Shown here: in pieces, positions 1,087 through 38,703 of the stretch | Position numbering within the stretch: position 1 is the first letter of the stretch | How the letters are laid out: every line of letters begins with the position of its first letter | Translations under genes and position numbers: made by a program | The notes under the pieces: generated by a model | Told to the model about the DNA's origin: nothing | Database searches by the model: none | The model's input: the letters and a program-made list of their open reading frames with translations, nothing else | Assembly: GCA_965204375.1 (NCBI GenBank) | Contig: OZ241986.1 | Span: 3,584,001 to 3,648,000 of the forward strand | Reading direction: 5' to 3' | Origin: Candidatus Latescibacterota bacterium | GTDB taxonomy: Bacteria > Latescibacterota > UBA2968 | Length of the DNA stretch: 64,000 nucleotides

Positions 1087-1129
1087 AGAACTAAAAAACC
1101 ACGCCCAAAGGACGTGGTTTTTTAGTTCT
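1087..1129. terminator. Bidirectional intrinsic terminator hairpin; near-identical copy at 30712-30750
   Basis: agaactaaaaaaccacg (1087-1103) pairs with cgtggttttttagttct (1113-1129); lies between convergent genes. Confidence 0.85.
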
Positions 1130-1775
1130 AAGATCGCTTTTTTTGTTTTGACCTTTTAAATTTACCTCGAATATACATCACAAATTCTTTGCCTCGGTAT
1201 AGGATTAACGAAATAAACACACCCACCGCCATTATAGAATCGTACCAGGAATTGTATTCAATCGATAGCTGACAGCCGAACTCAAGGTAGATGAGATAAG
1301 CCTGCAACACAATAACAATAAGGGGAAAAATTCCTGCATAGAATATCCAAACACAATTTGAAAAAGAAGGGTAATCTGTGAGATATGATTTACCCTCTCT
1401 AGTGTATATAGAATCATCTCCAAGAAGAGAAGAAATGGTATCTTCAAGTTTATGTAGATATTTATACTGTCGATCTACCGTAATGGAATTCTGACAGTAG
1501 CGTAGCATGATAACTAGAAAAACCGTCCATGTTGCGCTTGTGATAATGGAGATAGGGAGAGCATTGAGAACATTAAGAGATTTCTTTGTGCTTGAAGTGC
1601 TTATTTCATTGAATATCCTCTGAAGATCATCCGGATACTGCACCTCCAAGAATAAAGAACCAAGGAGCGCAATAAGTACTAGAAATAGCAAGTCTCTCTG
1701 CTTCTCCCTTTCCCGAATTTGAGAGAAGCTTTCTTTGTAATGGTCGTGTAAAATATTGAGATCAGGAATATCCAT
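1128..1775 (-). CDS. Hypothetical integral membrane protein (~4 TM), putative effector of the upstream TIR
   Basis: 215 aa; hydrophobic segments LLFLVLIALLGSLFL, ISIITSATWTVFLVIML, VWIFYAGIFPLIVIVLQAYLIYL, SIMAVGVFISLILY; starts 9 bp after the TIR stop. Confidence 0.75.
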   Translation of the reverse strand: MDIPDLNILHDHYKESFSQIREREKQRDLLFLVLIALLGSLFLEVQYPDDLQRIFNEISTSSTKKSLNVLNALPISIITSATWTVFLVIMLRYCQNSITVDRQYKYLHKLEDTISSLLGDDSIYTREGKSYLTDYPSFSNCVWIFYAGIFPLIVIVLQAYLIYLEFGCQLSIEYNSWYDSIMAVGVFISLILYRGKEFVMYIRGKFKRSKQKKRS

Positions 1776-1784
1776 GGCGTAGCT

Positions 1785-2210
1785 TCACGCTTTCCTAATA
1801 GCCCTAAGAATAGCCTCAACCGTGAAACTCATAGCCCATTCAGCACCTTTTCCATAGAGGGGATCTGGAGACGTATTCGATGAGTCAATTTTGACAGCAA
1901 TAAACCCTTTCCTCTCTTCCGCGCTCTTATTGATTTCCCACCACTGCCAATTTCGATCACCTATCTCCTTTCTGTCACGATGATAACTATTAGCGTGTTT
2001 ACCAATGATAACAAGAGTATGGGTAGCCTCACGAATTTTACTAGTGAGGACTGCCTTAATACGGGAGATATCTTCACTTTGGATTTCCTCCGGCGTACAG
2101 TCATCAAAGTCAATATCTGAGCTCGGATTTGCAACTAGCGCATTGAGAAGATATCGATAGTGCCGATCATGATCATAGTCGAAGCTTATGAAGACTCGTT
2201 TCTTTGCCAT
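1785..2210 (-). CDS. TIR domain protein (ThsB / MTH538-DUF1863-like)
   Basis: N-terminal RVFISFDYDHD, TLVIIGK strand, W-x-x-W-E-I motif (WQWWEINKS) carrying the catalytic Glu; SD GGAGG upstream. Confidence 0.85.
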   Translation of the reverse strand: MAKKRVFISFDYDHDRHYRYLLNALVANPSSDIDFDDCTPEEIQSEDISRIKAVLTSKIREATHTLVIIGKHANSYHRDRKEIGDRNWQWWEINKSAEERKGFIAVKIDSSNTSPDPLYGKGAEWAMSFTVEAILRAIRKA

Positions 2211-2373
2211 TCTTACCTCCTGGGGTTTTATGGTGATGCTTTGGTAATTACATCGAGAATATTGCCAAATGTTGGCGGGGCTAAGCGCATCTCTGAACCG
2301 CGAAGCGGTTGGGAGAAGGGATGAATGCTCTGAAGTTTGGGGCAGAGGTGCTGTTAGGTCCTACTATGGTTTG

Positions 2374-3283
2374 CTAAGGAGCATCGAATGTGATTCCGAT
2401 TGCCGCCGAAATTGGTCCCGAGCGTCGATTGAATATAGTAAACAGCCCCTCATCATTTCTACTTTGAGTGATATATCCTTCTCCGCACGTAACAAGAAGA
2501 TGTGCAACAAAATGTTCTAAGCGCCACCCGACTTCATGTTCTGCCGAATTGTACGGTTCTGGAAGCCCGACCTGCAGATCTTCATAACAGGGCACGCGCT
2601 GAGAATCAAAACTTTGGAGTGCTTGTCTAACCGACTCTGATCTGACTATGCGACAACCAACTGTGTTTGGGCCTCGGGGGTTCCTTGTAGTAGTCCGTGG
2701 AACATTGTAAGTAGAGGGGACGCGTAGTGGATGATAGAACATGTAGTGGACAGGAATTCCTGTGCTATTTTCATATTCCTCTATGCGTTCATACTGATCG
2801 TTACCCTTCCTTAGCGCCTCGTATCTGCTTGTTTGTTTGAATCTAAACTTCCGTGACTCAGAAACAGCGAGATAGGTTTCCTCTGATTCGAATAGACGTC
2901 CAAATCCCCAGAGATAGTCCAAAGGCTGATCCTCATCAGAGTCCACTTGTGGGGTAAAGTCGCTTGGACTGGAGAAGTGCGACCTTGCTTCGGACGAATT
3001 GCCCGGCCTGTCGAAACATCACCAGAAAGCCGATATCGGCAATTTCCCACGATCCAAAGTGCCGTCCACCCCCGAGATAATAAGTGTCAAGCCGAACTGT
3101 CCATCCGGAACCGAGCCTTACAGGAGCCGAATAATTCGAAAGATGCTCAATGAAAGTCATGTCCAGAGAAGTTTCATGAACATTCGGCATTTTAGAGATT
3201 TTTCTTGACACAGCCAGGTTGCAGGCTTCAAAAATATTCTCTAAAAATGCCAGAACATCGTCAGGCAGATAGATTTGATTCAA
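2374..3283 (-). pseudogene. PD-(D/E)XK-type nuclease-like gene split by a frameshift near 2940-2950
   Basis: 5' ORF (TTG 3283 after GAGGA) contains EIADIG...ALLQSKRLYP and ends at 2936; an overlapping ORF 2374-2946 in another frame continues as a plausible C-terminal half. Confidence 0.55.
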
Positions 3284-3381
3284 TTTGGCTTCCTCGATTT
3301 GGGCAGAATGATCCAGTGGTGCAAACCTTACCAGAAAAGCAAATGAATCTACCCACGTTTGAAAGGGCACTGCTTCAAGAG

Positions 3382-4470
3382 TCATGGAATAGGAGGAAAA
3401 GATACAGTTTTTTTTGACCTGCTCCTGTCTCGGTCTTTAGAAACGTACTTCACATTGTGATAGTCCCTGTACCAGGCGACAAAATTTGCAAGTCCTGTTT
3501 CTATGGGCGTTGTGGGATTATAGCCCACATCTCGCATGAGATCCGATACGTCTGCGGCATTATCCGTGAAGTCTCCAGGCTGTATGGGCATATCTTTTCG
3601 GATCGCTTTTTTGCCCAGCAAGTCCTCTAATAGCGAGAGGAAATACTCTAATTCTATGACGTTGTGATTGCCGATATTGTAAATCCGATAGGGGCTGGAA
3701 CTCGATCCCGGGTCGGGGCATTGTCCCGTCCATTCGGGATCTGGCTTTGCGGGGTTTGACAAGACGCGAGTTACGCCTTCGACTATGTCGCCGACATACG
3801 TAAAACTGCGACGCATCTTGCCGTGATTATAGACTTTGACAGGTCGATTTTTCAGGATGGCTCTGGTCCACAGATAGGCAACCCCATCCGGACGTCCCCA
3901 GGGTCCATAGACGGAGAAAAAGCGCAATCCCGTCGTGGGAATATCGTATAGATGGCTATACGAATGCGCCATTAGTTCATCGGCTTTTTTTGTCGCTGCG
4001 TACAGGCTGAGGGGATGATCGACATTTTGGTGGATGTTAGCGGGTGTGGTGGTGTTCAAGCCATAAACAGAACTCGACGAGGCATAGACCAGATGTTCAA
4101 TACCGCAATGGCGACATCCTTCCAGGATGTTGAGAAATCCCATGACATTGCTTTTGACGAAGGCCTGGGGATTTTTCAGGCTATAAGGCATACCCGCCTG
4201 GGCCGCGAGGTTGATGACGTGAGAAAAGTTCTCTTCGCGGAAGAGGTTTGTTATTCCCGCTTCGTCCTCGAGGTGCATGCGAACAAATTTGAATCCGCTT
4301 TCCCGTTTTAGAATGGATAGGCGGTCTTCTTTGAGTTGAGTACTGTAATAACCGTTCACATTGTCCAATCCGACTACTGAATGCCCCATTTCAAGCAGTT
4401 GTCTGGAGAGATGAAATCCAATGAATCCCGCAGCACCTGTTACGAGTACGTGTCGCGCAGCATCAGTCAT
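3382..4470 (-). CDS. NAD-dependent epimerase, UDP-glucuronate 4-epimerase type
   Basis: VLVTGAAGFIG, HLAAQAG, YASSSSVYG, YAATK, RFFSVYGPWGRPD; ATG at 4470 preceded by AAGGAG. Confidence 0.92.
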   Translation of the reverse strand: MTDAARHVLVTGAAGFIGFHLSRQLLEMGHSVVGLDNVNGYYSTQLKEDRLSILKRESGFKFVRMHLEDEAGITNLFREENFSHVINLAAQAGMPYSLKNPQAFVKSNVMGFLNILEGCRHCGIEHLVYASSSSVYGLNTTTPANIHQNVDHPLSLYAATKKADELMAHSYSHLYDIPTTGLRFFSVYGPWGRPDGVAYLWTRAILKNRPVKVYNHGKMRRSFTYVGDIVEGVTRVLSNPAKPDPEWTGQCPDPGSSSSPYRIYNIGNHNVIELEYFLSLLEDLLGKKAIRKDMPIQPGDFTDNAADVSDLMRDVGYNPTTPIETGLANFVAWYRDYHNVKYVSKDRDRSRSKKTVSFPPIP

Positions 4471-4504
4471 GTTACAAATCTTCTCCTTATCCCTCTCATA
4501 AAAA

Positions 4505-5530
4505 CTATTCGAGCAATTGTATTGCCATCTCAATAACCGGATCTTTTTTTATAACCTCGTCAGAAGATGGCACCTCAACGTGAATATCCGGAGGAATACC
4601 AACGCCTTCATACATAACATGATCTGCCGAAAACCACTTCCCAATAGAGATTCTATATACCCAACCATTGGGAAGTTCTCGATACATGTTAGGTGCCATG
4701 CTACCTGCCGTCACGTCTCCAACTATCCTGACATAAGGAAATAGCTTCATTGCCAATACGAAATATTCCCCACCACTTATTGTTCGTCTATCCGTGAGTA
4801 CAATAATGGGTTTGGTAAATTGTTTTTCTCCTGCAGGCTCGACATATCTTTCTCGAATAGGAGTAAAATCTGAATGGCGAGGTCCATTGCGCCTTTGCAA
4901 AAGAGAGGACAGTTTCTTCTGGTCTGCAAAGCGTCCCACTACCGCTTCGACGTTGACTCCGTTTCCTCCAGAATTATTTCTTACATCTACAATGAAACCC
5001 CTGTGATCAAAAAACTCGTTTACAATGGGATCTATAGCTTCTACCCAAGCACTGCCATTCCTGCTACTGAAAGACGCAATGTGTAAATAGCCTATGGTAT
5101 CAGAGATTTGACCAGACGTAAAAAAACCGTTCCCTGTGGTTTGAAACCCAGAACGCAAGTATTTACTCTTCACAAGATCCAAATTGAGCGTCCCTTCAGG
5201 TCGTCCCTTTGCATGGCTTGAGATGAATCTCTCAAACGGCGCAATCAGATACACATGTTCATCGTCTAAATGAGCCAGCATTGAAGACATAATTTCAAAG
5301 AGAGCATTGTCGTTCGTCTGATCGGTGACTTGCGGCGCATAGATGTCATACAGGGCATTCCAATCAATGTTTTTCACCTTAAACAGGGCATAATAGCGGT
5401 CAAATTCATCCCATAAAATTTGAAAATTGTTCTGTGGGGTATTGGCGGGATCAGAACCGACTAGGATTTCGCCACAAGAAAACAATACAGGCAAAAGGAT
5501 GATACCGACTATTCGGGTTAAAAAACGCAA
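4505..5530 (-). CDS. S41 family peptidase, probable lipoprotein
   Basis: Lipobox-like LFSC; IGYLHIASF, IVDVRNNSGG, T-I-S-G-G-E catalytic Ser region, IVGDVTAG, EGVGIPPD. Confidence 0.88.
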   Translation of the reverse strand: MRFLTRIVGIILLPVLFSCGEILVGSDPANTPQNNFQILWDEFDRYYALFKVKNIDWNALYDIYAPQVTDQTNDNALFEIMSSMLAHLDDEHVYLIAPFERFISSHAKGRPEGTLNLDLVKSKYLRSGFQTTGNGFFTSGQISDTIGYLHIASFSSRNGSAWVEAIDPIVNEFFDHRGFIVDVRNNSGGNGVNVEAVVGRFADQKKLSSLLQRRNGPRHSDFTPIRERYVEPAGEKQFTKPIIVLTDRRTISGGEYFVLAMKLFPYVRIVGDVTAGSMAPNMYRELPNGWVYRISIGKWFSADHVMYEGVGIPPDIHVEVPSSDEVIKKDPVIEMAIQLLE

Positions 5531-5542
5531 TGCCTATCCCTT

Positions 5543-6295
5543 TCAAAATTGGAACGAGATGCCCCCACTAAGTCCGTGAAAGACTGAAATTGTTTTTCGA
5601 GGTTGGGAATACCGCTGGTAGAGAAACCAATATGCCAGGCGCAACTTGAAATAAGCAGAAAGGGTGTGTTCATAAAGTGAGGAAAACCGTAAACGTTGAT
5701 AACCATTGAGACTGATCAACCGATTCGTTATATCTAGCGAATTTACGGCATAACTATTTCGCAATAAATAACCTAAAACTGGAATAGATAAAAAGAAAAC
5801 GACTCTTTGTTTTTCAAAGGGTAATAGCTCGCACAAAAGGGCTATATTGAGAGTCGAGACTGCTGTGCCCGTTGGTGCACCACTATAATTAGAGGAAAAA
5901 AAAGAATAATCTCTGGCAGAGACCATAATATCCCAGTTCCCCCCCAACCAAAAAGTCCTATTGGCACTCGAACCCCCTGACAATAGATGCGTATACCCGT
6001 ATTGCAATTGCCCGTAATAATGGTCAGCGAGACTCTTGCGTGCAGATGTTTTTAATTCACCTGTCATAATATGTACTTGCACCCAATGCTGATTCTTCAT
6101 CCCTTTGTAATTGTAAAAAACCCCAATTTTTTTTTGATTTCCTTCATACAGCAGCGGCGATGCCAGATCATCTCTATTTATGTAATTCGTTAGCCCTACA
6201 TCAATGCCGATTTGGTGTGTGTTTTTTCCAAATACTACCGTTGAATGCAGGACCAAAAGGATGGCGATGAGAATGGTGAATACTTTCAGGTTCAT
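5543..6295 (-). CDS. Hypothetical exported protein, probable outer-membrane beta-barrel
   Basis: Signal peptide, alternating aromatic beta-strands, C-terminal GISFQF; overlaps the GT4 stop (ATGA). Confidence 0.6.
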   Translation of the reverse strand: MNLKVFTILIAILLVLHSTVVFGKNTHQIGIDVGLTNYINRDDLASPLLYEGNQKKIGVFYNYKGMKNQHWVQVHIMTGELKTSARKSLADHYYGQLQYGYTHLLSGGSSANRTFWLGGNWDIMVSARDYSFFSSNYSGAPTGTAVSTLNIALLCELLPFEKQRVVFFLSIPVLGYLLRNSYAVNSLDITNRLISLNGYQRLRFSSLYEHTLSAYFKLRLAYWFLYQRYSQPRKTISVFHGLSGGISFQF

Positions 6296-7482
6296 TGCGC
6301 CAACACCCGGCGATAGATGTCAATCCAATTTTCAGTTTCTTGAGCCAGAGAAAATTGATTTGCTACTTTCTTTTTTCCTGCCCTACCAATCCTCTTTCGG
6401 AGTTCCATATCCTCAAGTAATAGTTGCAATTTTTGCGATAACATATCGGCGTCATCCGTAGGAACAAGCAGGCCATTCTTATTATCTTCAACTATATCAA
6501 CAATACCACCGACTTGAGAAGCCACAATGGGTAGTTCACAGGCCATCGCTTCTATGAGTGCATTTGGCGACCCTTCATGAAGCGAAGATAAGGCAAAAAT
6601 ATCCATCTCTTTCATCCACGCCATCACCTCCCGATGTGGAATATAACCCGTAAATACAACTTGCCGTTTGAGTCCCGAGTCACTGATTTGCTTCAACATA
6701 TCTCTTTTGTAGGATTCTTGTATAAACTTACCAACAACAAGCAAGCAAGTATCGGGATAAACTTTTACTACCCTCTCAAATGCCTGTAAGAGAATGTGAA
6801 ACCCCTTTACGGGCCGCAAAAGTCCAGCTGTCCCAATGACTGCTCCCCCTTGTGATTTCATCCGTAAAAAGGTTTCAGTAAGTATTTGCAGTCTATCGTT
6901 GTGCTCTCTTGTTATTTCTAAAAGTGCGCGTGCATCAAATATCGATGCATCAAACACATTGAGCATGACTTTTCCCTCTTTGACCCTTACCATTTGATGA
7001 ATTTTTTGCATGAGTTCAGATGATACCGACGTTACATAATCTGCTCGTTCTAATACCCACCTTAGATTTGCTGCGTGTTGGATGCTATATCGCAAAACTT
7101 CCCAATCGCTACCTCTGACACTAACAATGAAGGGGCGCTCAATTTCAGTAGCCACAATTGCACCTAAAAATCCAGGGGGCATGAGAAAAGCGGCATGAAC
7201 TAAATCAAAGTTTTGTTCTTTATGAAGGTTAAAAATATAGTCACCAAGCACTTGTAAACTATACGGATCAGCGTGGTATTTTGATAATATCGAAAATGTT
7301 CGATGTACTGTCACGTCATCTTCTATGACAGGTGATATCTTATCTCTTAATTGATAGGGACCTGGCGCGATAATATGGATATTAACACCCTGTTTTGCCA
7401 GATTTTTAGCAATCCTATAAATTGCACTTCCCACTCCTCCAGGATAAGGGGGATATTGGTACGAAATCAGACAGATATTCAT
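6292..7482 (-). CDS. Glycosyltransferase family 4 (GT-B)
   Basis: YPPYPGG N-terminus, KGFHILL, EGSPNALIEAMACELPIVAS motif. Confidence 0.92.
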   Translation of the reverse strand: MNICLISYQYPPYPGGVGSAIYRIAKNLAKQGVNIHIIAPGPYQLRDKISPVIEDDVTVHRTFSILSKYHADPYSLQVLGDYIFNLHKEQNFDLVHAAFLMPPGFLGAIVATEIERPFIVSVRGSDWEVLRYSIQHAANLRWVLERADYVTSVSSELMQKIHQMVRVKEGKVMLNVFDASIFDARALLEITREHNDRLQILTETFLRMKSQGGAVIGTAGLLRPVKGFHILLQAFERVVKVYPDTCLLVVGKFIQESYKRDMLKQISDSGLKRQVVFTGYIPHREVMAWMKEMDIFALSSLHEGSPNALIEAMACELPIVASQVGGIVDIVEDNKNGLLVPTDDADMLSQKLQLLLEDMELRKRIGRAGKKKVANQFSLAQETENWIDIYRRVLAQ

Positions 7483-7497
7483 ATTTACCTCATGATG

Positions 7498-8295
7498 TCA
7501 CGAATTGGGTTTTCGCGCTGTAATTTCTCCGAATAGAAGGGATAGATATTTGAAGGGATAATAATGATGTTTACCAAATTCGGTCAAAGCAGGTTGACCA
7601 TTGATCTTGGTAATCATATATCGGGAAGACTGGCTGGCGGTGAAACCAATTAACTTGCAAGAGCGAATTTCTTCAAAACCGGCACTATATATAGCACTTA
7701 TATGTTCTTCAAGAGTAGGTGTTTTATATGCAAAGATTCTATTAAACTCCGCCATCTCTCGTTTTTCTTCACTCGATGCTCCCTCTTTATCCAAGAAATA
7801 GACATCCTTGATATATAGCTTCCCCCTTGGACGCAGTACCCGGAAAACTTCCTCAAAAAGACGTTGGCGATCATAAGCATAGCCCGCAGATTCAAAAAAA
7901 AATACGACATCAAAGGATGAATCAAAAAATGGAAGGTCATGATAATCGCCTCTATAGACTTGAATTCTCGAGGATAGTCTCGCTTGCTGAATCAGTCTCT
8001 TAGCTATTTTTGCCTGAACTTCGGAAAGCGTAATCGCATCAATGTGAACGCCCTGAGTGTTCAAAGCAATGTCAATACTTGGTCCGCAGACACCACAACC
8101 ACAGTCTAAAATTCGGTGACCTGATTGAATGCCAGCACGAGAGGCCAGATATAGGTTGGTCGTTTTGGCTGTATTTCTTCGGGAATGTGACAATTGAATT
8201 GCCTGAAGGCTTGTACCCACATATTTCAAATAAACTTCAGTCATTGTGTCGTAATAATCGCATACTTTTTCAATGTATGCTTTGTGATCTTCCAT
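7498..8295 (-). CDS. Class I SAM-dependent methyltransferase
   Basis: ILDCGCGVCGP motif I, GDYHDLPF, FDVV, VLRPRGKL. Confidence 0.9.
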   Translation of the reverse strand: MEDHKAYIEKVCDYYDTMTEVYLKYVGTSLQAIQLSHSRRNTAKTTNLYLASRAGIQSGHRILDCGCGVCGPSIDIALNTQGVHIDAITLSEVQAKIAKRLIQQARLSSRIQVYRGDYHDLPFFDSSFDVVFFFESAGYAYDRQRLFEEVFRVLRPRGKLYIKDVYFLDKEGASSEEKREMAEFNRIFAYKTPTLEEHISAIYSAGFEEIRSCKLIGFTASQSSRYMITKINGQPALTEFGKHHYYPFKYLSLLFGEITARKPNS

Positions 8296-8296
8296 A

Positions 8297-9547
8297 TCAC
8301 ATCATCATCCTTGTTAATCGCTTCGCAATTCGGTATATAGCAAGGCCGAACATCAGAATGATCAGAGAGGGAAAGAAAAAGTCCGACAATGCACTCCCAA
8401 TATTTCGCCAATTCCCCACTGCAAAACTGTTTATTATCTCGCTAAAAGTCTTATACACTAAGCCAGGATAGTTTGTAACTAGATCGGGAAACAAAAAGAA
8501 AATCTTGTAAAAAAACAGAAAGAAGAAACTGGTGCTAACGATTCCATACAGCAAAAGAAACGATTTCATTTTACCACTGATGTGCAAAAAGACAGGTTCA
8601 GCGACCCCTTTTTGTTTTAAGACGAAACGTTTCGCAAAGTATTTCAGAATTTCTAAAGACCTTTTTCTGAGATTGGGTACGCCTATTATATCGGAAAAAA
8701 GCCAATACCCATCAAAGCGGAAAATTGGATTCAAGTTAAACAGTGCTGAACCGTAGTTAAGGAGAATCGCGTACAAAAATATGCTACTTGATGTCATTAG
8801 ATACAAAATGAAGAGTATGGGAACAAAAATAAGCTGAAAATATATGCCACCAAAGTCCACCATCGCACGTTGAGTTCTCGGCAGTCTCCAAGCATCCGTT
8901 ACATCAGCATAGAGAACGGGAAATCTAAAATATAATCCTATTCCTATCTCTCCAGGAAACACACCATAATAGGCACAGGCAGAAGAATGACCTAATTCAT
9001 GAAAGATCGCTAAAATACCAAAAATTATTAGCCCAAAGATAGCTTCTTGAAACGAAATATCATAAATAACAATATCTATGACTTGAAAAACAAAAAAATA
9101 AAAGTATAAAAAGAAGACGAAAGAGAAGAAAATAAAGAAGATCAGAATTCTTGGATTATAGAGAATTTTTAAAATATGACTAATGGACTGAACTACATTC
9201 TCCCGAATAATGGGATATTGAAAATACAAATATGAACTACTTTTTTGAATACTGTCATCTGAGTTTGTGTTTTCAAGGATGCCATAGGGCACAAGAAATG
9301 AATGGATAATTGCATCAATGTCTTTGGTAGAATAAGTCTTGTTTCTGACAGTAGAGTATTCGTTTGCAATTTCAGACAGTGTTTTTTTTCCATCTATCAA
9401 CTCTAAGATCTGATAGATACCTTCGCTTATTTCAAACCGTTTCGTACCTATACATAAAACATAACTCTCCTTAGCCAAAGAAGTATCGAATTTATACATC
9501 GAAACTTTAGGAACCAACTTAATCGGGTCTGGTAGGGACTCTTGCAT
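8297..9547 (-). CDS. Membrane zinc metallopeptidase (M50/site-2 type) with N-terminal PqqD/RRE-like domain
   Basis: N-terminal ILELIDGKKTLSEI (RRE-like helix-turn); FHELGH, NLNPIFRFDGYW, PNLR; multiple TM segments; resembles YydH-type RiPP peptidases. Confidence 0.85.
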   Translation of the reverse strand: MQESLPDPIKLVPKVSMYKFDTSLAKESYVLCIGTKRFEISEGIYQILELIDGKKTLSEIANEYSTVRNKTYSTKDIDAIIHSFLVPYGILENTNSDDSIQKSSSYLYFQYPIIRENVVQSISHILKILYNPRILIFFIFFSFVFFLYFYFFVFQVIDIVIYDISFQEAIFGLIIFGILAIFHELGHSSACAYYGVFPGEIGIGLYFRFPVLYADVTDAWRLPRTQRAMVDFGGIYFQLIFVPILFILYLMTSSSIFLYAILLNYGSALFNLNPIFRFDGYWLFSDIIGVPNLRKRSLEILKYFAKRFVLKQKGVAEPVFLHISGKMKSFLLLYGIVSTSFFFLFFYKIFFLFPDLVTNYPGLVYKTFSEIINSFAVGNWRNIGSALSDFFFPSLIILMFGLAIYRIAKRLTRMMM

Positions 9548-9588
9548 GATATATTCCTATCTCAATTGTTCGCGGCGGGATCTATGGT

Positions 9589-9627
9589 GGCATCCAAACC
9601 TGATGCTTAGCACGGAATTTGGATGCC
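9589..9627. other. Intergenic stem-loop within RiPP cluster 1
   Basis: ggcatccaaa (9589-9598) pairs with tttggatgcc (9618-9627). Confidence 0.4.
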
Positions 9628-9724
9628 GCTGATCACGGAAAACAACGGGGGAAAGCACATCCTTTTTTGCTCGGCGCATTCTATGCCATCTTTAAACTAT
9701 CTACTTTGCAGGTGGTCGCTTGCG

Positions 9725-10729
9725 CTAAAATTTTTCGCTTTCTTTCAGCATCACAAGTTTACTTACCCGATCAATTTCTCGCTCCTTGGCCGCCTTCAAA
9801 TTGCGGAGCATAACTGACGTTTCAGATATGCAGGTGTCAAGAGCAATCTTCCAGTCCGTGCAAGGAATATTTTCAACATACGACAATGATTGTCGATAAT
9901 AATCTATGGAATAATCGAGAATTTCTTCTGCCAGCCCTGTAAAATAAATCATGCGTGCCAGTTCTTCCAGAGTAATAGATTCTAATTTTTTTTTCAGTCC
10001 CTTTCTTTCAATGATTTGAGACAAAAGATACGAATATCTTCCAGCCAAAAAATCTATGCGCCAATCTTTAAGATCATCACGAAACTGTAGTCCTGTAAAA
10101 AAAGCATCTAAGGATTTTTCAAAGGGCCGGATCAGATCGGGGGAATGAGATAAACAGGCTAGAGCAGTTGTCGCCATTTGGGCGGTAGAGGCTTTATCTG
10201 AGGCAATTTTAAACGCCTCATCCAAAGAATAAGAAGTGGGATTATTCCATTTTGTTCTTTCTTCTAATGTTGCAGTAATAACGCGCCGTTGGTACTTTTT
10301 GGCAAAGACCCAAAAATCCGAACTTTTTGAAAATAAATCATTTAGCAACACATACGCATGATCCCTTAAAAGTGAAACTAAAAAATAGGCATCTACTTTA
10401 AGTGCTTCTTGCTCATCAAAAATATCGTCCATATACATTGTATAGAGATATATTGATCTATTAGCAAAATATAATTTCTTATGCGTATCTTCATCTAAAA
10501 CAAATGCCTGTGAGAACAGATATGTAAAGGAAGTATATATATCATTACCCAAAAATATGGGATCTTGTAAAGCCGTCTCCAAGTTATACTCTTCACAAAT
10601 CTGCGATATGAATTGATAAAATTCTACTTCGGATTTTTTAATAGATATATCGTCCTGAAGGCCAAAATTCAATGAAGAAATTTCATCCTCCAGAGACTCA
10701 AATGGGTCTAATGGTAAATGCTTATCCAT
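9725..10729 (-). CDS. Class I isoprenoid-synthase / prenyltransferase-fold protein (ComQ-like candidate peptide prenyltransferase)
   Basis: Two aspartate-rich motifs MDDIFD and QFRDDLKDW; all-alpha character. Confidence 0.72.
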   Translation of the reverse strand: MDKHLPLDPFESLEDEISSLNFGLQDDISIKKSEVEFYQFISQICEEYNLETALQDPIFLGNDIYTSFTYLFSQAFVLDEDTHKKLYFANRSIYLYTMYMDDIFDEQEALKVDAYFLVSLLRDHAYVLLNDLFSKSSDFWVFAKKYQRRVITATLEERTKWNNPTSYSLDEAFKIASDKASTAQMATTALACLSHSPDLIRPFEKSLDAFFTGLQFRDDLKDWRIDFLAGRYSYLLSQIIERKGLKKKLESITLEELARMIYFTGLAEEILDYSIDYYRQSLSYVENIPCTDWKIALDTCISETSVMLRNLKAAKEREIDRVSKLVMLKESEKF

Positions 10730-10804
10730 ATAAAGGTCCTTGGTGAAAACTCCGAAAGAGATGGGTTTGCTTGCTGCATCGGGTAGTCAAGCCATAGTTA
10801 TTCT

Positions 10805-13228
10805 TCAATTGAGCCGTGCAAAACTAGCCCGTATTGAAAACCCATCCTCGTCCAGCCTTTTGGTCGCGTCAATGCGTATCAAGTGATATATGTTTAAAGA
10901 GATACCGGCTTCGTGATAGAATTTGTCGAGGACATGGGGATCATATTGCAGGGTGTCTAATTTCTCTTTTGATATCCAAGTTCGCCCCGATCCACCATAT
11001 AGTATGACCTCAAAGCCATTTCTAGCCAAATATTCCATATTGAAAATTTCAAAGGGTGCAGAGCGAAAATTGTGCTGCCAGTAAACACCGAAATATTTTT
11101 CGCCTTCATAAGGATAGCCACCTAAATGCTTGAAAGTGCCAAATGAGGTGAAGGGACGCCAAACATCCAAAACGCCGAAACGCTGTACGGGTAAATCACC
11201 CGTAAAAGTTCCAGCCGTAACGCGAACATCTAAAACATTGGGTACTGCACGACGCTTCAAGAATGTTTCAATACGCCAATCAAAACCCAAATCGTATTTG
11301 ACATAAGAGAAATCGCTTTTTAAGAGATCTAAAGAACCCCATTCAACCCAAGCAGTTGCACACTTATAACGAGACTCTCGAAAGCGAAATCTGAAATCAA
11401 TATAACGAAGCCGACCTTCATCAATGGGTGGATTTATGCGTTGGCTTATATCTCTTCCCAGAATGTTGAAATCCGTCTGTTTGCTCAACAAAGAGTGCTT
11501 TTCATCATGGAATCCCAAAGACAATCTCCCTTTTCCCCGCGAAAATCGCTGTGTAATATCAAAATTCGCAGATTTGCGCCAATAATAATCGTAGTAATCG
11601 TCCAATCCCAGTAGGGTAAAGCCACTTTGCAAAGCAACGTCGGTCAAATTGCCAAGACCGTAATTGAGATTGCCAGAACCGTAATGATAAGAATGATACC
11701 GTTCGGCGATAGCGGTTTGATGATAAAATCGTAGTTCACCGACATTCCTTGTTCCCCTACCCCATCCATACCGGAATCTAATAAGATAAGGCCTGTAGGA
11801 GAGGCCCTGAGAATATTCTCCTCCCAAGTCCAATCCATATCGTCTTCCCGTAGCTTGATTGAGCAGTGCTGAGTAAATGATCATATTCACTCTCGCCATG
11901 CTTACACGATTATAGCCTCCCGGATTAATACGCCACCCAAAAATAGGTCTCCATCCCTTGCGTCTCTGAGATTTTTTTGCAGATTTTAACGACTCTAAGC
12001 TCATTTGAGTCCAACGCGCTATCGGACCAGAAGGCGGGAATGCCTTGCGAATAGTCAATTTTTCATCAATTTCACGATATGCTTTTTTTTCCCTTGCGCT
12101 ATTAGGAAATCTTGTGAACAAGCTGTCCCTCCGAATCGAAACAGAATCAACTGAAACAATCTGGTTTTGCTCGAAAATTGACGTGGAAAGTTTTTTGTTT
12201 ACCTCGAAATTGTTTAACTGTGTAATGACCGTTATTTTGCCTTTGGGAATCTTTAGTACCCCAGGTATTGATACCCTCCCTTCAATCTGCAGGTGAAAAT
12301 CAATGGGCAACCACACATCGTCGCCAAATCTCTGAAACTGTTGGAGAAAGGAGACTTGTACCCCCCTGACAAAGGAAACGAACGAAAATACAATCGGACT
12401 AGGGTTTACTTCTGCGCGTAAGATTACAAAGGCTTCATCTAAAACAAATACCCGGCCCATAAAAGCTGGTTGGAGTTTGGTCTTAGGACGCAGGGATATT
12501 TCATAGATAGTCTGTCCACCATTGTATTGTTGCTCACGCAACTCAAAACGGTAAAAATCGAGTGCGTCTGGATGTGTAGGACCAATAATACGGTTTCCCG
12601 CGAAAACAATCTCATCATCATAAATGTTGGGCAGCGATTTGAGAGCTTTAAAAACTGAATATGTATATAACCATTCTGGCACGTTTTTGGTATGGCGTTT
12701 AGACACAATAAACTCGCGAAAACCCCGATCGCGATCCCAATGAATTTCAGACACCAGATCTCCTATCCCAACAATACGCGCTTCATTTTCAACATTTTCA
12801 GCGACTTGCCGCGTATATGCCATCGCCTTAAAACGCTTCAGCTTTGGACGCCATTGACCCTTTTTCTCAATGACTTTTTGCATAATTGCCGATCCCATAT
12901 CAGACGTTACAACAATTTCCTCAAACGGGTATGCCACAGGCTGCATTTTGATGGACAGAACCTCAGCAGCCTCATTCACGAAAACCTTCTGATCAGCATA
13001 TCCAATATGCGTAATAAGCAACGTGACAGGTAATCCTGAGACCTCGAGCACAAATACACCGTCTTCATTAGATATCGTTGCAAAAAATGTATCCTTAGCT
13101 CTAATATTGGCAGTCGCTAATGGCTGCCTGCTATCCGCATCGACAATTTTACCGGAGATCATAACTTGACCATTTGCACTTTCACAAAATACAAGGAAGA
13201 TATACGCCACTATAATGAAAATCCTCAT
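10805..13228 (-). CDS. Outer-membrane protein with carboxypeptidase-like regulatory N-domain (DUF5686-like)
   Basis: Signal peptide; ISGKIVDADSRQPL...SNEDGVF...HIGY N-terminal domain; beta-rich C-terminal half. Confidence 0.75.
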   Translation of the reverse strand: MRIFIIVAYIFLVFCESANGQVMISGKIVDADSRQPLATANIRAKDTFFATISNEDGVFVLEVSGLPVTLLITHIGYADQKVFVNEAAEVLSIKMQPVAYPFEEIVVTSDMGSAIMQKVIEKKGQWRPKLKRFKAMAYTRQVAENVENEARIVGIGDLVSEIHWDRDRGFREFIVSKRHTKNVPEWLYTYSVFKALKSLPNIYDDEIVFAGNRIIGPTHPDALDFYRFELREQQYNGGQTIYEISLRPKTKLQPAFMGRVFVLDEAFVILRAEVNPSPIVFSFVSFVRGVQVSFLQQFQRFGDDVWLPIDFHLQIEGRVSIPGVLKIPKGKITVITQLNNFEVNKKLSTSIFEQNQIVSVDSVSIRRDSLFTRFPNSAREKKAYREIDEKLTIRKAFPPSGPIARWTQMSLESLKSAKKSQRRKGWRPIFGWRINPGGYNRVSMARVNMIIYSALLNQATGRRYGLDLGGEYSQGLSYRPYLIRFRYGWGRGTRNVGELRFYHQTAIAERYHSYHYGSGNLNYGLGNLTDVALQSGFTLLGLDDYYDYYWRKSANFDITQRFSRGKGRLSLGFHDEKHSLLSKQTDFNILGRDISQRINPPIDEGRLRYIDFRFRFRESRYKCATAWVEWGSLDLLKSDFSYVKYDLGFDWRIETFLKRRAVPNVLDVRVTAGTFTGDLPVQRFGVLDVWRPFTSFGTFKHLGGYPYEGEKYFGVYWQHNFRSAPFEIFNMEYLARNGFEVILYGGSGRTWISKEKLDTLQYDPHVLDKFYHEAGISLNIYHLIRIDATKRLDEDGFSIRASFARLN

Positions 13229-13280
13229 AGCATCCCCAATATCTCTGATAGAATCTCTAAATTCTGTCTCTCTTGCAATG

Positions 13281-13313
13281 AAAACTACCTGCTTGCAATA
13301 GGCAAGCAGGTAG
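13281..13313 (-). terminator. Stem-loop / terminator downstream of precursor gene
   Basis: ctacctgcttgc (13285-13296) pairs with gcaagcaggtag (13302-13313); UUUU follows on the minus strand. Confidence 0.7.
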
Positions 13314-13449
13314 ACAGGCCAATACTGTAATTAAAGTTTTTTTTACTCTCAGAACCGAAGTCGTCAACTTCACTAACTATGCACTTTGAAACGAGGCAGT
13401 GGATTGCTGGTTATTTGCCTTCTACAAAAGCATTCTCAGGTACTATTAC

Positions 13450-13701
13450 CTAAGAGCCATCATCATCACTACCATCATCACTACCATCATCACTACCATC
13501 ATCATCATTATTATTATTTTCTATACCACAACCATTGTCAGCATCATCGCATCCGATGTTGATGTAGCATGCTGTAAAAGGAGACATTTCGAGTCTTTCT
13601 TCAAGAACATCAACGGCCAGATCCTCATACAGTTCAGGATATGAGATAATATGTGCTTTGAGATCGGTTTCCGAAGAAATTTGGGAAGAAAATTTATCCA
13701 T
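13450..13701 (-). CDS. Putative RiPP precursor peptide (cluster 1), 83 aa
   Basis: Strong SD AAGGAGG; lies right after the rSAM; leader ending DVLEERLEM; core SPFTACYINIGCDDADNGCG and (DDGS)n tail. Confidence 0.78.
   Translation of the reverse strand: MDKFSSQISSETDLKAHIISYPELYEDLAVDVLEERLEMSPFTACYINIGCDDADNGCGIENNNNDDDGSDDGSDDGSDDDGS
13455..13516 (-). repeat. Coding microsatellite: 12-bp accatcatcact units plus tca/tta triplets (NNNN-DDDGS-DDGS-DDGS-DDDGS)
   Basis: Direct reading of the sequence. Confidence 0.8.
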
Positions 13702-13803
13702 GATACTACCCTCCTTAATTAAAGGTTACTTGATTAAAGACTTATATAGATGACATCATTGTTGATACTGGCATCAAAACATAGTATCTCCTTTCTTGAA
13801 AAT

Positions 13804-15561
13804 TTATACACTTTGTAAGGTCTGTTGTTTACACTCCTCAAATATCTCAGGCACAATCGTATGAAAAACTCTGGGATACTCATCGCAATAGGATGTCTTG
13901 ATATTGCCGTTATTCTTTACATAAGCATGTGCAGCACACCCACCGCCGCAAAAGAAAGCATATTTGCACTTACTACAAGATGGTACATTGGAAATATTCC
14001 GATCATACCACTCTGATAAACGTTTATCATTGAATTCAACTTTATCTACAAAACTTCCAACTTTATACCGCTCTACCCCCACTAAGTCCCAGCACGTATA
14101 GAGATCTCCATAAGGATCAAAGATCAACATATTGGTCTGTGCACCACAGAAAACAGGCTTGAAACTCAACAGTCCCTTGCCCTCAAAAGCCTTCTTGAAG
14201 GTCTGTCTAATGCCATAGTCCTGGCAAGAAATTTGATGCATCATGTCGGGGTTTTCTTTTGCAAACTGATAGTATTTGCGCGTGAATTCTCTTCTTGGTA
14301 TCACTGAAATTTCGCCGTTTTGAGGCTGGTTTGATTCCATCTCTTGAGATATTTTTTCCTGGTTAATTGGATGTGTACCGTTTTGGTAGTTCAAGAAAAT
14401 TTCTTCCTCTCGTTCTACATCTATGTATTGCTCTTCATCTATGAGCATTTCAGAAGCGGTGTGCAACTGTGCCTGGAGTTCAAGTTTCTCAGAAGTTTTC
14501 TGTTTTTTACTCTCACTGAAGGATATGACAGAGGCAACAGACTCGGCGGATCCGAAATCTGCTGCTGGTGCTTCAATTGAAATAAGAGGGGCTGTTTGAC
14601 CATAATTGCCTGGCGTCTTTTTACCGGACATTGTAGCACTACACGACATGCCCTCTTCAACCTGATGTACCAAAGCAGAATAGGCTGAAAATTTTGGATA
14701 CTCTGTAAATCCTCTATCTTTGAACAAATCAAATAATGCAGGCAAAATATCCACATTGTCGTAATCTGTATTGATCCGCATTGAAATCTGCACATCAAGC
14801 GACAGGGCAAGTGCCACATTTTTTATTATGGCGTCAAAGCTATCTCTCGCACGATAATGTGGACGCTTGCGATTGTGATTTTCTTCTTCGCCATCTAAGG
14901 TGATCTGAAGACGCCCGATTTTTTTCGGACTTAATAGGTCTGTGAAATGGTGGAGGTCATATCCATTTGTAATGGCTTTAAAAGTGTAACCGCGTTTCAA
15001 ACCTTCATCTACGATATACTTCACGATCTCTTTATTTTTGGCCAATAAAGGCTCTCCACCATATAGAGTAATGTTTTTGCTATGCATGGCTTTATTGGGC
15101 TGGATTTCACACATTGCTTGGTATGCACGGTCAACCATTTCTTTTGTAAATACCTGCTTTGACCAACCCCTTCCATAATCTGAAATGCCATTTTCAAAAC
15201 AATAGGGACAGCGGAAGTTACAATCATAGGCCACCAAGAAAAGGAAAGATGCGGCACTGTGGCTTGCGGTATGATGAAGAAAGTTCGCCATGCTATGCAC
15301 GTATTCTCGTTCTTCCACAGGTGAACGGCTAGTCATATAGCCCCGCTTCATCAATGTATGGATCGTCTCTTTTGAACAAGGCAGTTGATCAAACATATCT
15401 TCAGAGATAACAATCCGACTCTTTATCATCCGAGCAACTTCTTTATTCACTCTATCTATTGCGCCCGTATATCCGTGAACGAGCAGAGAGTGATTTGGAT
15501 CTTCAGGCAAATTGACACAAATTGTATAGGATGATACGCGATATAACTCTGAACTTGCCAT
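13804..15561 (-). CDS. Radical SAM / SPASM-domain peptide maturase
   Basis: CNFRCPYC, YGGEPLL, ITNG, QITLDG; SPASM FCGA...GDLYTCW...CSKCKYAFFCGGGC...C. Confidence 0.92.
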   Translation of the reverse strand: MASSELYRVSSYTICVNLPEDPNHSLLVHGYTGAIDRVNKEVARMIKSRIVISEDMFDQLPCSKETIHTLMKRGYMTSRSPVEEREYVHSMANFLHHTASHSAASFLFLVAYDCNFRCPYCFENGISDYGRGWSKQVFTKEMVDRAYQAMCEIQPNKAMHSKNITLYGGEPLLAKNKEIVKYIVDEGLKRGYTFKAITNGYDLHHFTDLLSPKKIGRLQITLDGEEENHNRKRPHYRARDSFDAIIKNVALALSLDVQISMRINTDYDNVDILPALFDLFKDRGFTEYPKFSAYSALVHQVEEGMSCSATMSGKKTPGNYGQTAPLISIEAPAADFGSAESVASVISFSESKKQKTSEKLELQAQLHTASEMLIDEEQYIDVEREEEIFLNYQNGTHPINQEKISQEMESNQPQNGEISVIPRREFTRKYYQFAKENPDMMHQISCQDYGIRQTFKKAFEGKGLLSFKPVFCGAQTNMLIFDPYGDLYTCWDLVGVERYKVGSFVDKVEFNDKRLSEWYDRNISNVPSCSKCKYAFFCGGGCAAHAYVKNNGNIKTSYCDEYPRVFHTIVPEIFEECKQQTLQSV

Positions 15562-15726
15562 TAAAAGACCTCCCTTGGTGTATGGGCATTACACTTGTAT
15601 TTATATGCTTATCTTACCTAATCGCCTATCACTATGAAAAATGGATGGCGTAGGATGCTTGTTCTGCACTACCACTAAAATGGAGCAACTCCAAATGATT
15701 CCACACATAGAAGAGTTAGAGGGGAG

Positions 15727-15755
15727 TTGACAACCCATCGATCAAAAGATATCTT
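15727..15755 (+). promoter_or_regulatory. sigma70-type promoter pointing into a structured intergenic segment
   Basis: TTGACA (15727-15732) - 17 nt - TATCTT (15750-15755). Confidence 0.6.
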
Positions 15756-15760
15756 AAACC

Positions 15761-15854
15761 ATTCAAGCTCACATTCCCAAATGCTTGAGCTTTGAACTGC
15801 TGTTGCAGTCTGCCGCCGACACTCGACTTGCCAGAGTCTGTCGGCGGCTTTTTT
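15761..15854 (+). ncRNA. Candidate small structured RNA (~94 nt)
   Basis: Follows the promoter; hairpins ttcaagctca/tgagctttgaa, actgc/gcagt and gccgccgaca (15812-15821)/tgtcggcggc (15839-15848) followed by T6. Confidence 0.45.
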
Positions 15855-15908
15855 GTGATGTGAATGATAATATGATTGCCCCTATAGTTTCAAGCCCAAA
15901 AGTTTGTC

Positions 15909-16616
15909 CTAATCTGCAAAATTTGTTCCAGTTGCTACTTTTTTTCGATATATTGTCGGACTAACTCCATACTTCTCTTTGAAAATCTTGCTAAAAGTCG
16001 ATAAAGATCCAAATCCACACAGGTAAGCAATTTCCGAAAGGGTATATGATGTGTTCTTCAACGCTTCCTCAGCCTTTGTTAGGCGTACATTCCGAAGGCA
16101 CATCCTGAATGGCATTCCCAGGTGCTTTTTAAATAATTTATGTCCATAGCTTTCCGAGAACCTGAAATGACGCATGATATCTTCAAATCTCAGCTTTGGA
16201 TTGCTGTAATTCGCCTCCAAAAATGATTCCAACCAACTCTTCCAAATATCTTGTAGAGGCATATATTTTTTGACCTTCGCCAAAAACACATCTTTCTTGA
16301 TGGGTTTATCAAATACACTCGCTGCACCAGCCTTGATCGCTTCCGCGCCCAATTCCATTTTTCCCAAACTTGTCATGATCAGTATAGTTGTCTGAATTTT
16401 TTCCGCCTTCACACGCTTCAATAGTGTCATACCATCCATACCCTTTATCTTCATCTCAACGACAGCAAGGCCGATCTCCTCTTTTCTTAAAATTTCAAGG
16501 CCTTCTATCCCGTTTCTCGCCGCGAATACTTCATAAAGTTCATCTCTCAAGAATCCTACAAGTTCTGATATTACAAATGGTTCATCATCTACAATCAAAA
16601 TTTGCTGCTTGTCCAT
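15909..16616 (-). CDS. Response regulator: receiver + AraC-type HTH (atypical receiver)
   Basis: ILIVDDE, GMDG, KP receiver motifs; C-terminal LSEIAYLCGFGSLSTFSKIFKEKYGVSP; acceptor position reads VVE rather than D. Confidence 0.88.
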   Translation of the reverse strand: MDKQQILIVDDEPFVISELVGFLRDELYEVFAARNGIEGLEILRKEEIGLAVVEMKIKGMDGMTLLKRVKAEKIQTTILIMTSLGKMELGAEAIKAGAASVFDKPIKKDVFLAKVKKYMPLQDIWKSWLESFLEANYSNPKLRFEDIMRHFRFSESYGHKLFKKHLGMPFRMCLRNVRLTKAEEALKNTSYTLSEIAYLCGFGSLSTFSKIFKEKYGVSPTIYRKKVATGTNFAD

Positions 16617-29506: not shown

Positions 29507-29527
29507 AAATGCAACCACCGTCAGAAT

Positions 29528-29559
29528 CAGGATGTGCAGGATTAAAGGATGAACAGGAT
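29528..29559. repeat. Short periodic AGGAT repeat (4 copies, 8-9 bp period), REP-like
   Basis: aggat at 29529, 29538, 29546 and 29555. Confidence 0.4.
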
Positions 29560-29664
29560 AAAAATCAAAAGCAAAACACTGGATCGCGGCTAAAGCATGC
29601 CGCGATGACGGGTACAACTTGCCAAAATATAATTAATAATTCTTATACTAAGAAAAAATTAAAT

Positions 29665-38651: not shown

Positions 38652-38703
38652 ACACACCTCCAGTAGAGAACCCGGTCAACTCCGTATGCTTGAACTGAGA
38701 CGC

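Follow-up and report, generated by a model that had tools for sequence, protein, structure and literature searches.

A putative ribosomal-peptide gene cluster with a radical SAM maturase, an M50 protease and a prenyltransferase-like protein in a Candidatus Latescibacterota bacterium

A 64,000-nucleotide stretch of the genome of a Candidatus Latescibacterota bacterium (contig OZ241986.1, positions 3,584,001 to 3,648,000; hereafter the window, whose own numbering is used throughout) carries, between positions 3382 and 16616, a string of genes resembling a pathway for a peptide that is made by the ribosome and modified after translation (RiPP). An initial annotation had noted 11 co-oriented genes there; this was borne out, as the list of open reading frames (ORFs) with their translations places all 11 on the minus strand within these limits, and the Pfam and NCBIfam domain scans agree with their labels. 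Six genes form the core, which comprises a response regulator, a radical S-adenosylmethionine (rSAM)/SPASM maturase, a precursor peptide, an outer-membrane (OM) protein with a CarbopepD_reg domain, a trans-isoprenyl-diphosphate-synthase (trans-IDS)-like enzyme and an M50-type protease with an N-terminal domain of the RiPP recognition element (RRE) type. Genes for a methyltransferase, a GT4 glycosyltransferase, a 250-aa secreted protein, an S41 peptidase and an epimerase follow. On balance, we lean towards the view that the region is a RiPP cluster in which this core is joined by a lineage-specific add-on of four genes, from the methyltransferase to the S41 peptidase, acting on the same product.

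Organization of the locus and its core genes

The genes from 9547 to 3382 had been described as spaced by no more than about 35 bp, and this proved accurate: the intergenic distances from the M50 gene to the epimerase gene are 1, 15, −4, 12 and 31 bp. These figures assume that the epimerase starts at the ATG at 4473; a start at the upstream TTG at 4533 would make it overlap the S41 gene. The G+C content at third codon positions (GC3) is 0.25–0.41 for the genes between 4505 and 16616, 0.52 for the epimerase gene and 0.57 for a patatin gene upstream of the cluster.

The maturase (585 aa; 13804–15561) is assigned by its matches to Pfam Radical_SAM (42.8 bits) and Fer4_12 and to the SPASM model TIGR04085 (61.5 bits against a cut-off of 27, residues 472–559). 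Its CxxxCxxC motif (C114, C118 and C121) and its SPASM cysteines (C472, C490, C529, C532, C538, C542 and C559) are invariant in 35 homologues. The protein falls below the cut-off of every named NCBIfam family, and the best-scoring named families are all maturases of Cys-rich peptides: CefB (134.9 bits; cut-off 600), geopeptide (122.8; 400), PapB (122; 340) and SCIFF (97.9; 425). A hydrophilic insertion of approximately 130 residues (about residues 300–430) separates the rSAM core from the SPASM domain. Homologues of 455–500 aa cover only about half of the query, and the tblastn alignments split at this point, which suggests that the insertion is missing in them. A word-indexed search returned 752 relatives at E ≤ 0.001, of which 15 are 80–86% identical, one is 56% identical and a broad set is 38–47% identical; the few sources named in this last set are Bacteroidota (Elizabethkingia, Saprospiraceae and Ferruginibacter) and Balneolaceae. 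When genome contigs were scanned with a profile built from the alignment of the 35 homologues, at least 79 loci were found whose maturases are 24–48% identical to that of the window. All counts of loci below refer to the 79 listed, which are numbered from L001. Among them, none is closer than 48% by best segment, and L001 (46%) has the best E-value.

The precursor gene (83 aa; 13450–13701, minus strand) is preceded by the ribosome-binding site AAGGAGG and encodes a leader with the motif ELExRxE, a core with three Cys and no Trp, and an acidic (DDGS)n tail. The peptide has no match in Pfam or NCBIfam. The leader motif is common to 12 small ORFs located beside homologous rSAM genes in seven loci, from Balneola (L001), Prevotellaceae (L002, L004 and L006), Clostridia (L008), Petrocella (L013) and Blastocatellia (L027), and a regular-expression search for it gave matches in only 6 of the 79 loci. 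In the alignment of the 13 precursors, L33 and E34 are invariant, and E32, R36, E38, C45 and C58 are nearly so. On the strength of these sequence features, we regard the 83-aa ORF as a genuine RiPP precursor, as the initial annotation had it; no further ORF with the leader motif was seen in the gaps of the cluster. A perfect 12-bp tandem repeat (3.7 copies, 13461–13504) encodes the acidic tail of the precursor, the length of which may therefore vary between strains.

The M50-type intramembrane metalloprotease (8297–9547, minus strand) carries an HExxH motif (H183, E184 and H187). Together with the residues of an NxxPxxxxDG motif (N273, D279 and G280), these positions are invariant in 10 homologues. 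Its NCBIfam scores are below the cut-offs for daptide_HExxH (120.3 bits against 300) and for YydH/LiaK (51.4 against 225); the region aligned to the 246-position LiaK model spans residues 104–284, and the RRE-type region, the first 85 residues, lies ahead of it. Within that N-terminal region, NCBIfam PqqD (TIGR03859) matches residues 17–65 with an E-value of 3.4e-4. The AlphaFold2 model of the protease (mean predicted local distance difference test, pLDDT, 82.7) places three strands followed by three helices at residues 15–85, with pLDDT of 81–90 there, and in a Foldseek search of this model SpoIVFB, the PqqD structure 5sxy (template modelling (TM) score by target 0.65) and RRE-bearing RiPP enzymes rank first. 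The modelled strand-helix pattern makes it likely that the N-terminal domain is an RRE, in line with the earlier description of the protein as an RRE-bearing M50 peptidase. We propose by analogy that the protease acts as the leader peptidase and possibly also as an exporter, given that EpeP, a related M50 protein of epipeptide pathways, is described as thought to cleave and export its peptide (PMC10885120).

The trans-IDS-like protein (334 aa; 9725–10729, minus strand) is a stand-alone prenyltransferase (P) domain that has no family match in Pfam or NCBIfam and was recognized by its fold and by profile matching. It carries two Asp-rich motifs, D101/D105 and D218/D219/D222/D226. In an alignment of 49 stand-alone members, D105, W140, D219 and D226 are invariant, and D101, D218, D222 and W223 are nearly so. 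The AlphaFold2 model built on this alignment has a pLDDT of 91.8. Its top Foldseek matches are hepta-, hexa- and octaprenyl, farnesyl and geranylgeranyl diphosphate synthases (TM scores of 0.57–0.67); 175 structures in the PDB match at E ≤ 0.001, with the tryptophan prenyltransferase Ord1 at rank 50. The family profile matches the solved trans-isoprenyl diphosphate synthase 3oyr at 4.8e-10, with both Asp-rich motifs falling on FARM (first aspartate-rich motif) and SARM (second aspartate-rich motif). The consensus QLxDDLxDW aligns on the FQxxDDxxD of solved synthases; its Gln also occurs in ordinary synthases and is not diagnostic. In the family profile, non-basic residues take the place of the GGKRIRP stretch that binds isopentenyl diphosphate, and the basic loop that follows SARM is missing. 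The alignment of FARM and SARM, together with the loss of the GGKRIRP stretch and the loop, indicates that the prenyl-transfer fold and the diphosphate site are kept and the chain-elongation site is not. The model, the Foldseek matches and the profile thus agree with the annotation of a DDxxD enzyme with a prenyltransferase fold, and we propose from the modelled fold that the protein is a peptide prenyltransferase.

A full HMMER search assigned 697 representative clusters to the family of the 334-aa protein at E ≤ 0.001. Among the 149 clusters listed, not counting that of the window itself, 71 have 600–770 aa, 48 have 280–360 aa and 30 have other lengths. The long forms carry the homologous part at the N-terminus, and their C-terminal part matches models of the alpha-alpha toroid of squalene-hopene cyclases and prenyltransferases, with QW-like repeats and a conserved D.D; such P-cyclase (P-C) fusions have no counterpart in the window, where none of the 47 proteins scanned matches SQHop_cyclase or Prenyltrans and no toroid protein was found. 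We built a FastTree phylogeny of 130 domain sequences from 52 stand-alone forms and 78 long forms, each of the latter truncated to its first 340 residues; the 25 of the 149 representatives that are shorter than 280 aa or have 373–599 aa were not included. The window protein falls in a clade of seven stand-alone members (support 0.89), which is nested in a mixed clade of nine stand-alone and six fused members (support 0.94). Cyclase-less versions of the prenyltransferase domain exist. We had also considered that the toroid and the N-terminal domain form a Cys-prenylating pair of the protein-farnesyltransferase type, and dropped this idea, as the window has no toroid. In L008, the P-C fusion is followed by a GldB-like lipoprotein domain (6326–7225), which in a 988-aa member of the family (P0160) is fused to the C-terminus.

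Two core genes remain. A response regulator with an AraC-type helix-turn-helix domain (15909–16616, minus strand; Pfam Response_reg 78.7 bits, HTH_18 75.8 bits) is likely the cluster regulator, and AraC-type helix-turn-helix proteins are also encoded upstream of the rSAM gene in L001 and L008. The 807-aa OM protein (10805–13228, minus strand; Pfam DUF5686 98.2 bits, CarbopepD_reg_2 46 bits) is a candidate export or receptor component, and L001 and L004 encode CarbopepD_reg proteins at a comparable position (276 aa in L001; 759 aa, with OMP_b-brl_3, in L004). Between the precursor and OM protein genes, a terminator-like hairpin (13285–13313, minus strand; 12-bp stem with seven GC pairs, then TTTT) may act as an attenuator and is the strongest site of its kind between 2000 and 17500. 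Over the same interval, neither promoter-like sites (32 against 36.8 in shuffled sequences) nor terminator-like sites (11 against 11.8) are in excess.

Recurrence of the core and comparison with known systems

We searched the 79 loci with 12 window proteins by tblastn. An M50 homologue lies beside the rSAM gene in 10 of them (L001–L006, L008, L013, L018 and L027); in L003, it forms the first third of a 1094-aa ORF without a Pfam match (3142–6426), directly upstream of the rSAM gene. Homologues of the 334-aa protein were found in three loci by tblastn, and a hidden Markov model (HMM) of the family raised this number to five: L001, L008, L013, L018 and L027. All five are within the group of 10 loci with both rSAM and M50 genes, and none is among the other 69. 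They come from Balneola, two Clostridia, Petrocella and Blastocatellia, and in each the domain is fused to a class-II-cyclase-like toroid. The DUF5686 protein and the regulator had no tblastn homologue in the 79 loci. Given that the rSAM gene, a precursor with the leader motif and the M50 gene recur together in phylogenetically distant loci, the grouping of the core goes beyond chance, and we take the core to be a genuine RiPP system, as the initial annotation had identified it.

The neighbours of the fused forms are consistent with a prenyl-transfer function. The P-C fusion cluster of L018 is flanked at 9806–11319 by genes for a NUDIX protein and a genuine polyprenyl synthetase (191.6 bits), and in L001 a NUDIX protein (7350–7913) follows the P-C fusion. 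Type 1 isopentenyl diphosphate isomerases are Nudix-fold enzymes, and genes of these two kinds beside the clusters would fit a local supply of the prenyl donor. In addition, the cores of the precursors in L001 and L008 have a Trp just before the first Cys, which fits a Trp acceptor in these two loci.

In Prevotellaceae loci without the prenyltransferase domain, a Wzy_C membrane protein (677–728 aa) is encoded right after the M50 gene (L004, 15118–17151; L006, 13182–15368). The Wzy_C (O-antigen-ligase-like) family includes protein O-oligosaccharyltransferases, and its presence beside the M50 gene would hint at peptide glycosylation in those loci.

Work on ribosomal peptides that trans-IDS-like enzymes prenylate is still very young. 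A 2026 review names ComQ, PalQ and the P domain of ChrPC as enzymes of this type that act on tryptophans of RiPPs, and states that all those characterized target Trp (PMC13290415). In the same account, the P-C fusion ChrPC uses C10–C20 donors to prenylate an internal Trp and then cyclizes the prenyl group, the primary source cited there being Hubrich et al. 2024, Chem 10:3224 (PMC13290415). As far as the description in the review allows the comparison, the window and ChrPC share a trans-IDS-like P domain in a RiPP pathway, and the long forms of the window's family have a ChrPC-like P-C architecture; P-C fusions of this family adjoin precursors, including the two with a Trp before the first Cys. 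The window enzyme, in contrast, lacks a cyclase domain and is paired with a precursor free of Trp. ComQ of Bacillus (with ComX) and PalQ of Paenibacillus (with PalX) resemble the window protein as stand-alone members of the isoprenoid synthase superfamily of about 300 aa with an adjacent small precursor and a retained FARM. However, ComQ is described as lacking a true SARM (PMC10853753), whereas the window's family keeps DDxxD at that position; the ComQ and PalQ systems have no rSAM, M50, methyltransferase or glycosyltransferase, and their acceptor is the Trp that is missing from the window core.

The maturase shares the CxxxCxxC motif, the SPASM domain and an adjacent Cys-containing precursor with the thioether-forming rSAM/SPASM families (PapB ranthipeptides, CefB, SCIFF and geopeptide), and differs from them by its scores of 98–135 bits against cut-offs of 340–600 and by its insertion of about 130 residues. 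To our knowledge, ELExRxE is not the leader motif of any of these classes. Likewise, the M50 protein is an intramembrane HExxH protease in a RiPP cluster with an rSAM enzyme, as are those of epipeptide (EpeP/YydH/LiaK) and daptide pathways, and yet falls short of both the LiaK and the daptide cut-offs. We found no account in the literature of a cluster combining rSAM, M50 and trans-IDS-like genes; the primary report on ChrPC was outside this search, and prior publication is possible. The initial annotation could match the cluster to no named RiPP class. This needs qualification, as the module of rSAM/SPASM, RRE-M50 and prenyltransferase domain is widespread, occurring in Bacteroidota-like, Firmicutes and Acidobacteriota genomes, and the fused form of the prenyltransferase domain has a ChrPC-like architecture; the part that stands is that the window has no cyclase and pairs a cyclase-less enzyme with a Trp-free core and with methyl- and glycosyltransferases.

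Downstream genes and competing explanations

Directly behind the M50 gene are four genes that we regard as the add-on. The first encodes a class I S-adenosylmethionine-dependent methyltransferase of the CMAS-like type (7498–8295, minus strand; Pfam Methyltransf_11 64.5 bits, CMAS 48.3 bits), whose NCBIfam matches are all below cut-off (DVU_1556 56.5 bits, CfaB 44.1 bits and geranyl diphosphate 2-C-methyltransferase 41.8 bits). The second encodes a GT4 glycosyltransferase (6292–7482, minus strand; Pfam Glycos_transf_1 131.7 bits, Glyco_transf_4 57.3 bits), with BshA as its best named match (142.3 bits against a cut-off of 273.7). The third encodes a secreted protein of 250 aa (5543–6295, minus strand) without a Pfam or NCBIfam match. 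By eye, it has a signal-peptide-like N-terminus and a C-terminal Phe, and its language-model likeness (Atlas) is to Bacteroidota hypothetical proteins (0.98) and DUF3316 (0.97), which are leads only. The label of OM barrel assigned earlier goes back to these features and is probable. The fourth gene encodes an S41 C-terminal-processing-type serine peptidase (4505–5530, minus strand; Pfam Peptidase_S41 98.7 bits, Tricorn_C1 44.1 bits), and a lipobox-like LFSC seen by eye near its N-terminus makes it a probable lipoprotein. The four genes are tightly packed, with 1–15-bp gaps or overlaps, and have the low GC3 of the core.

Close relatives of the GT4 enzyme form 14 full-length clusters at 77–83% identity, after which identity drops to 49% and below. 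Six of the 14 apparently share a contig with rSAM clusters, clusters of the 334-aa prenyltransferase-like protein, or both; these contigs have 17877, 13155, 3426, 522650 and 4699647 bases and, for the window's own, 6340849 bases. On this last contig there is a second copy of at least three genes (P0004, P0132 and P0302), whose maturase, prenyltransferase-like protein and GT4 enzyme are 83, 76 and 80% identical to those described here; a tblastn search showed that it does not lie inside the 64-kb window.

On the reading we favour, we infer all chemical steps from these genes, the first four (leader binding to leader removal) on conserved gene content, and they would run as follows. The RRE-type domains would bind the ELExRxE leader, and the rSAM/SPASM enzyme would cross-link the Cys-containing core, most likely through thioethers. 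The stand-alone trans-IDS-like protein would then move a linear prenyl group from a prenyl diphosphate onto the core, and since the core has no Trp, some other residue must be the acceptor. At the membrane, the M50 protease would cut off the leader. In this lineage, the CMAS-like methyltransferase and the GT4 enzyme would probably decorate the same product, the S41 lipoprotein may trim the acidic C-terminal tail in the periplasm, and the two OM proteins may pass the product outward. The methyltransferase, GT4, 250-aa and S41 genes would have shared the duplication or inheritance of the core. Should the enzymes do what is suggested here, the cluster would offer a peptide-lipidation chemistry that is new, and a case in which the combination of cross-linking, prenylation and glycosylation can be put to the test.

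Several points weigh against this reading. The enzyme activities and the product are predictions from gene content. The known acceptor of characterized enzymes of the trans-IDS type is Trp, and with a Trp-free core the 334-aa protein might act elsewhere. As for the recognition domains, Pfam detected no PqqD domain in the first 100 residues of the M50 protein or in the first 105 residues of the maturase at E-values up to 10, and all Foldseek matches of the M50 model are above E 0.001. The methyltransferase, the GT4 enzyme and the 250-aa protein, like the epimerase, have no homologue in the 79 loci by tblastn, and the S41 peptidase has one weak, unrelated match there (L048). Contig sharing was assessed for GT4, by equal size in bases, and the 3426-base contig is too short for the gene order of the window. 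The link of the add-on to the peptide thus comes from adjacency and from conservation in close relatives, which would share synteny anyway, and methylation and glycosylation of the peptide are matters of inference.

The alternative that survives best is that only the genes from the regulator to the M50 protease constitute a RiPP cluster and that the methyltransferase, GT4, 250-aa, S41 and epimerase genes belong to an unrelated envelope or polysaccharide module. We consider this unlikely, while granting it a real chance. It draws on the lack of homologues of these five genes near the rSAM gene in the 79 loci, which is also the finding that the initial annotation had named as grounds for giving up the tailoring genes. 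In addition, genes for GT4 enzymes, SDR (short-chain dehydrogenase/reductase) epimerases, S41 lipoproteins and small OM barrels are of kinds typically found in envelope functions, the GC3 of the epimerase gene is deviant, and the co-oriented string continues into unrelated ORFs and a gene for a ThsB-like TIR protein. Set against this are the 1-bp distance between the M50 and methyltransferase genes and the 4-bp overlap of the GT4 gene with the 250-aa gene; the GT4 homologues that apparently lie on contigs of 13–18 kb with homologues of the prenyltransferase-like protein and the maturase; the second genomic copy, which has a GT4 paralog at matching divergence; and the low GC3 that the genes from the methyltransferase through the S41 peptidase share with the core. 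The absence of the tailoring genes from related loci holds at a distance (the methyltransferase, GT4 enzyme and epimerase occur in none of the 79) and not, for the GT4 gene, among close relatives at 77–83% identity, which apparently keep it on one contig with the maturase and prenyltransferase-like genes. Even if the add-on genes were unrelated, the core would still add a clean new case to a RiPP family of which little has been described.

A more specific version of the reading we favour assigns every tailoring step to one product: prenylation of a residue other than Trp (Cys, Tyr or another) in a thioether-cross-linked core, methylation on the double bond of the prenyl group by the CMAS-like enzyme, O-glycosylation by GT4 on Ser of the (DDGS)n tail or on the core, and, after that, trimming by the S41 peptidase. 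Taken as a whole, this combination seems to us doubtful. The CMAS family methylates lipid double bonds. SdgB is a GT4 enzyme that O-glycosylates the Ser-Asp repeats of staphylococcal adhesins; it resembles the window enzyme in that a GT4 gene lies beside a substrate with an acidic Ser/Asp repeat, and differs in that the window GT4 reaches only 44.1 bits against the SdgB cut-off of 800, a generic GT4 likeness. Ser residues of the tail as GT4 acceptors are thus a speculative analogy. In glycocins, the glycosyltransferase is of the SunS-like GT2 type, whereas the window enzyme is a GT4 (Glycos_transf_1 and Glyco_transf_4) with no GT2 match in the Pfam scan. If this version were true, the product would combine the first peptide prenylation of the trans-IDS type away from Trp with the first glycosylation of a RiPP by GT4, in an uncultured-type bacterium of the FCB group with two copies of the pathway.

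The initial annotation had gone further and suggested that all 11 genes make one cross-linked, lipidated and methylated peptide carrying a uronic acid supplied through the epimerase. The SDR sugar-nucleotide epimerase (3382–4473, or to 4533 with the TTG start, minus strand; Pfam Epimerase 184.3 bits) matches the PDB entries 5u4q (421 bits; its deposited label may, we presume, be generic), 6zl6 (137.8 bits), WbgU (130.8 bits) and MoeE5 (116.3 bits), and scores 132.8 bits against the TviC model. The entry 6zl6, deposited as 'Epimerase domain-containing protein', is what we take to be the UDP-glucuronate 4-epimerase of Bacillus cereus. In sequence, the window protein accordingly resembles UDP-glucuronate 4-epimerases; its closeness to structures of the UDP-glucuronate/UDP-GlcNAcA 4-epimerase type, the common orientation of the genes and the gaps of at most 31 bp from the M50 gene onward speak for its inclusion. 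However, its GC3 of 0.52 stands apart from the 0.25–0.41 of the cluster. Nothing links the GT4 enzyme, whose best match BshA is below cut-off, to a uronic acid donor. Moreover, the 149-aa ORF behind the epimerase gene overlaps its stop codon by 4 bp, and co-oriented minus-strand ORFs continue to 1128, so that the boundary at 3382, which had been given as the end of the cluster, is arbitrary. The epimerase may be only a neighbour of the cluster, the uronic-acid glycosylation hung on this one flanking gene is not sustained, and we judge a product of all 11 genes to be very improbable.

Least likely of all, in our judgement, is that the 334-aa protein serves to make or handle an isoprenoid lipid, such as a carrier or membrane lipid, that is later methylated and glycosylated by the methyltransferase and the GT4 enzyme, with a RiPP that is only cross-linked and cleaved: the retention of both Asp-rich motifs of chain-elongating synthases, the lack in the core of Trp, the only acceptor known for the enzyme type, and the CMAS-like nature of the methyltransferase would suit it, but the family as a whole has lost the GGKRIRP stretch and the basic loop behind SARM, the domain lies beside rSAM, M50 and precursor genes in five distant loci without GT4 or methyltransferase, and L018 has a separate, genuine polyprenyl synthetase alongside.

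Other genes of the window

The minus-strand string behind the epimerase gene (1128–3385) consists of two overlapping ORFs without a known family (149 and 190 aa), a gene for the ThsB-like TIR protein (40.8 bits in Pfam; 36.3 bits for ThsB in PADLOC) and a gene for a 215-aa protein with hydrophobic stretches; it is possibly a defence module. Farther upstream of the cluster, a second rSAM/SPASM maturase of 476 aa (22748–24178, minus strand) has its best matches, all below cut-off, to SCIFF (263.8 bits), QhpD-type (250.9 bits) and Nif11-peptide (248.4 bits) models, and is followed after 15 bp by a 294-aa ORF without a family match (21848–22732, minus strand). These two genes possibly constitute another RiPP system. 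A DDE transposase gene (20380–21738, minus strand; DDE_Tnp_1_4 508 bits) lies between the two rSAM regions, and the GC content of the window swings between 0.38 and 0.56, which suggests a mosaic region.

The remainder of the window encodes a 1637-aa protein (24704–29617, minus strand) with Ser/Thr kinase, AAA_16, TPR, GAF, sigma-54 activator and Fis-type helix-turn-helix domains. At 44093–47378 on the minus strand, a gene for a Cas4-like nuclease (341.5 bits) adjoins one for a class II prokaryotic Argonaute (911 bits for PADLOC pAgo_II), and near them are a gene for an Mrr-like nuclease and ORFs without a family label. Three sulfatase genes (37188–38657, 51186–52583 and 55391–56815) and a gene for a BNR-repeat protein are also present, and point to a polysaccharide-degrading lifestyle.

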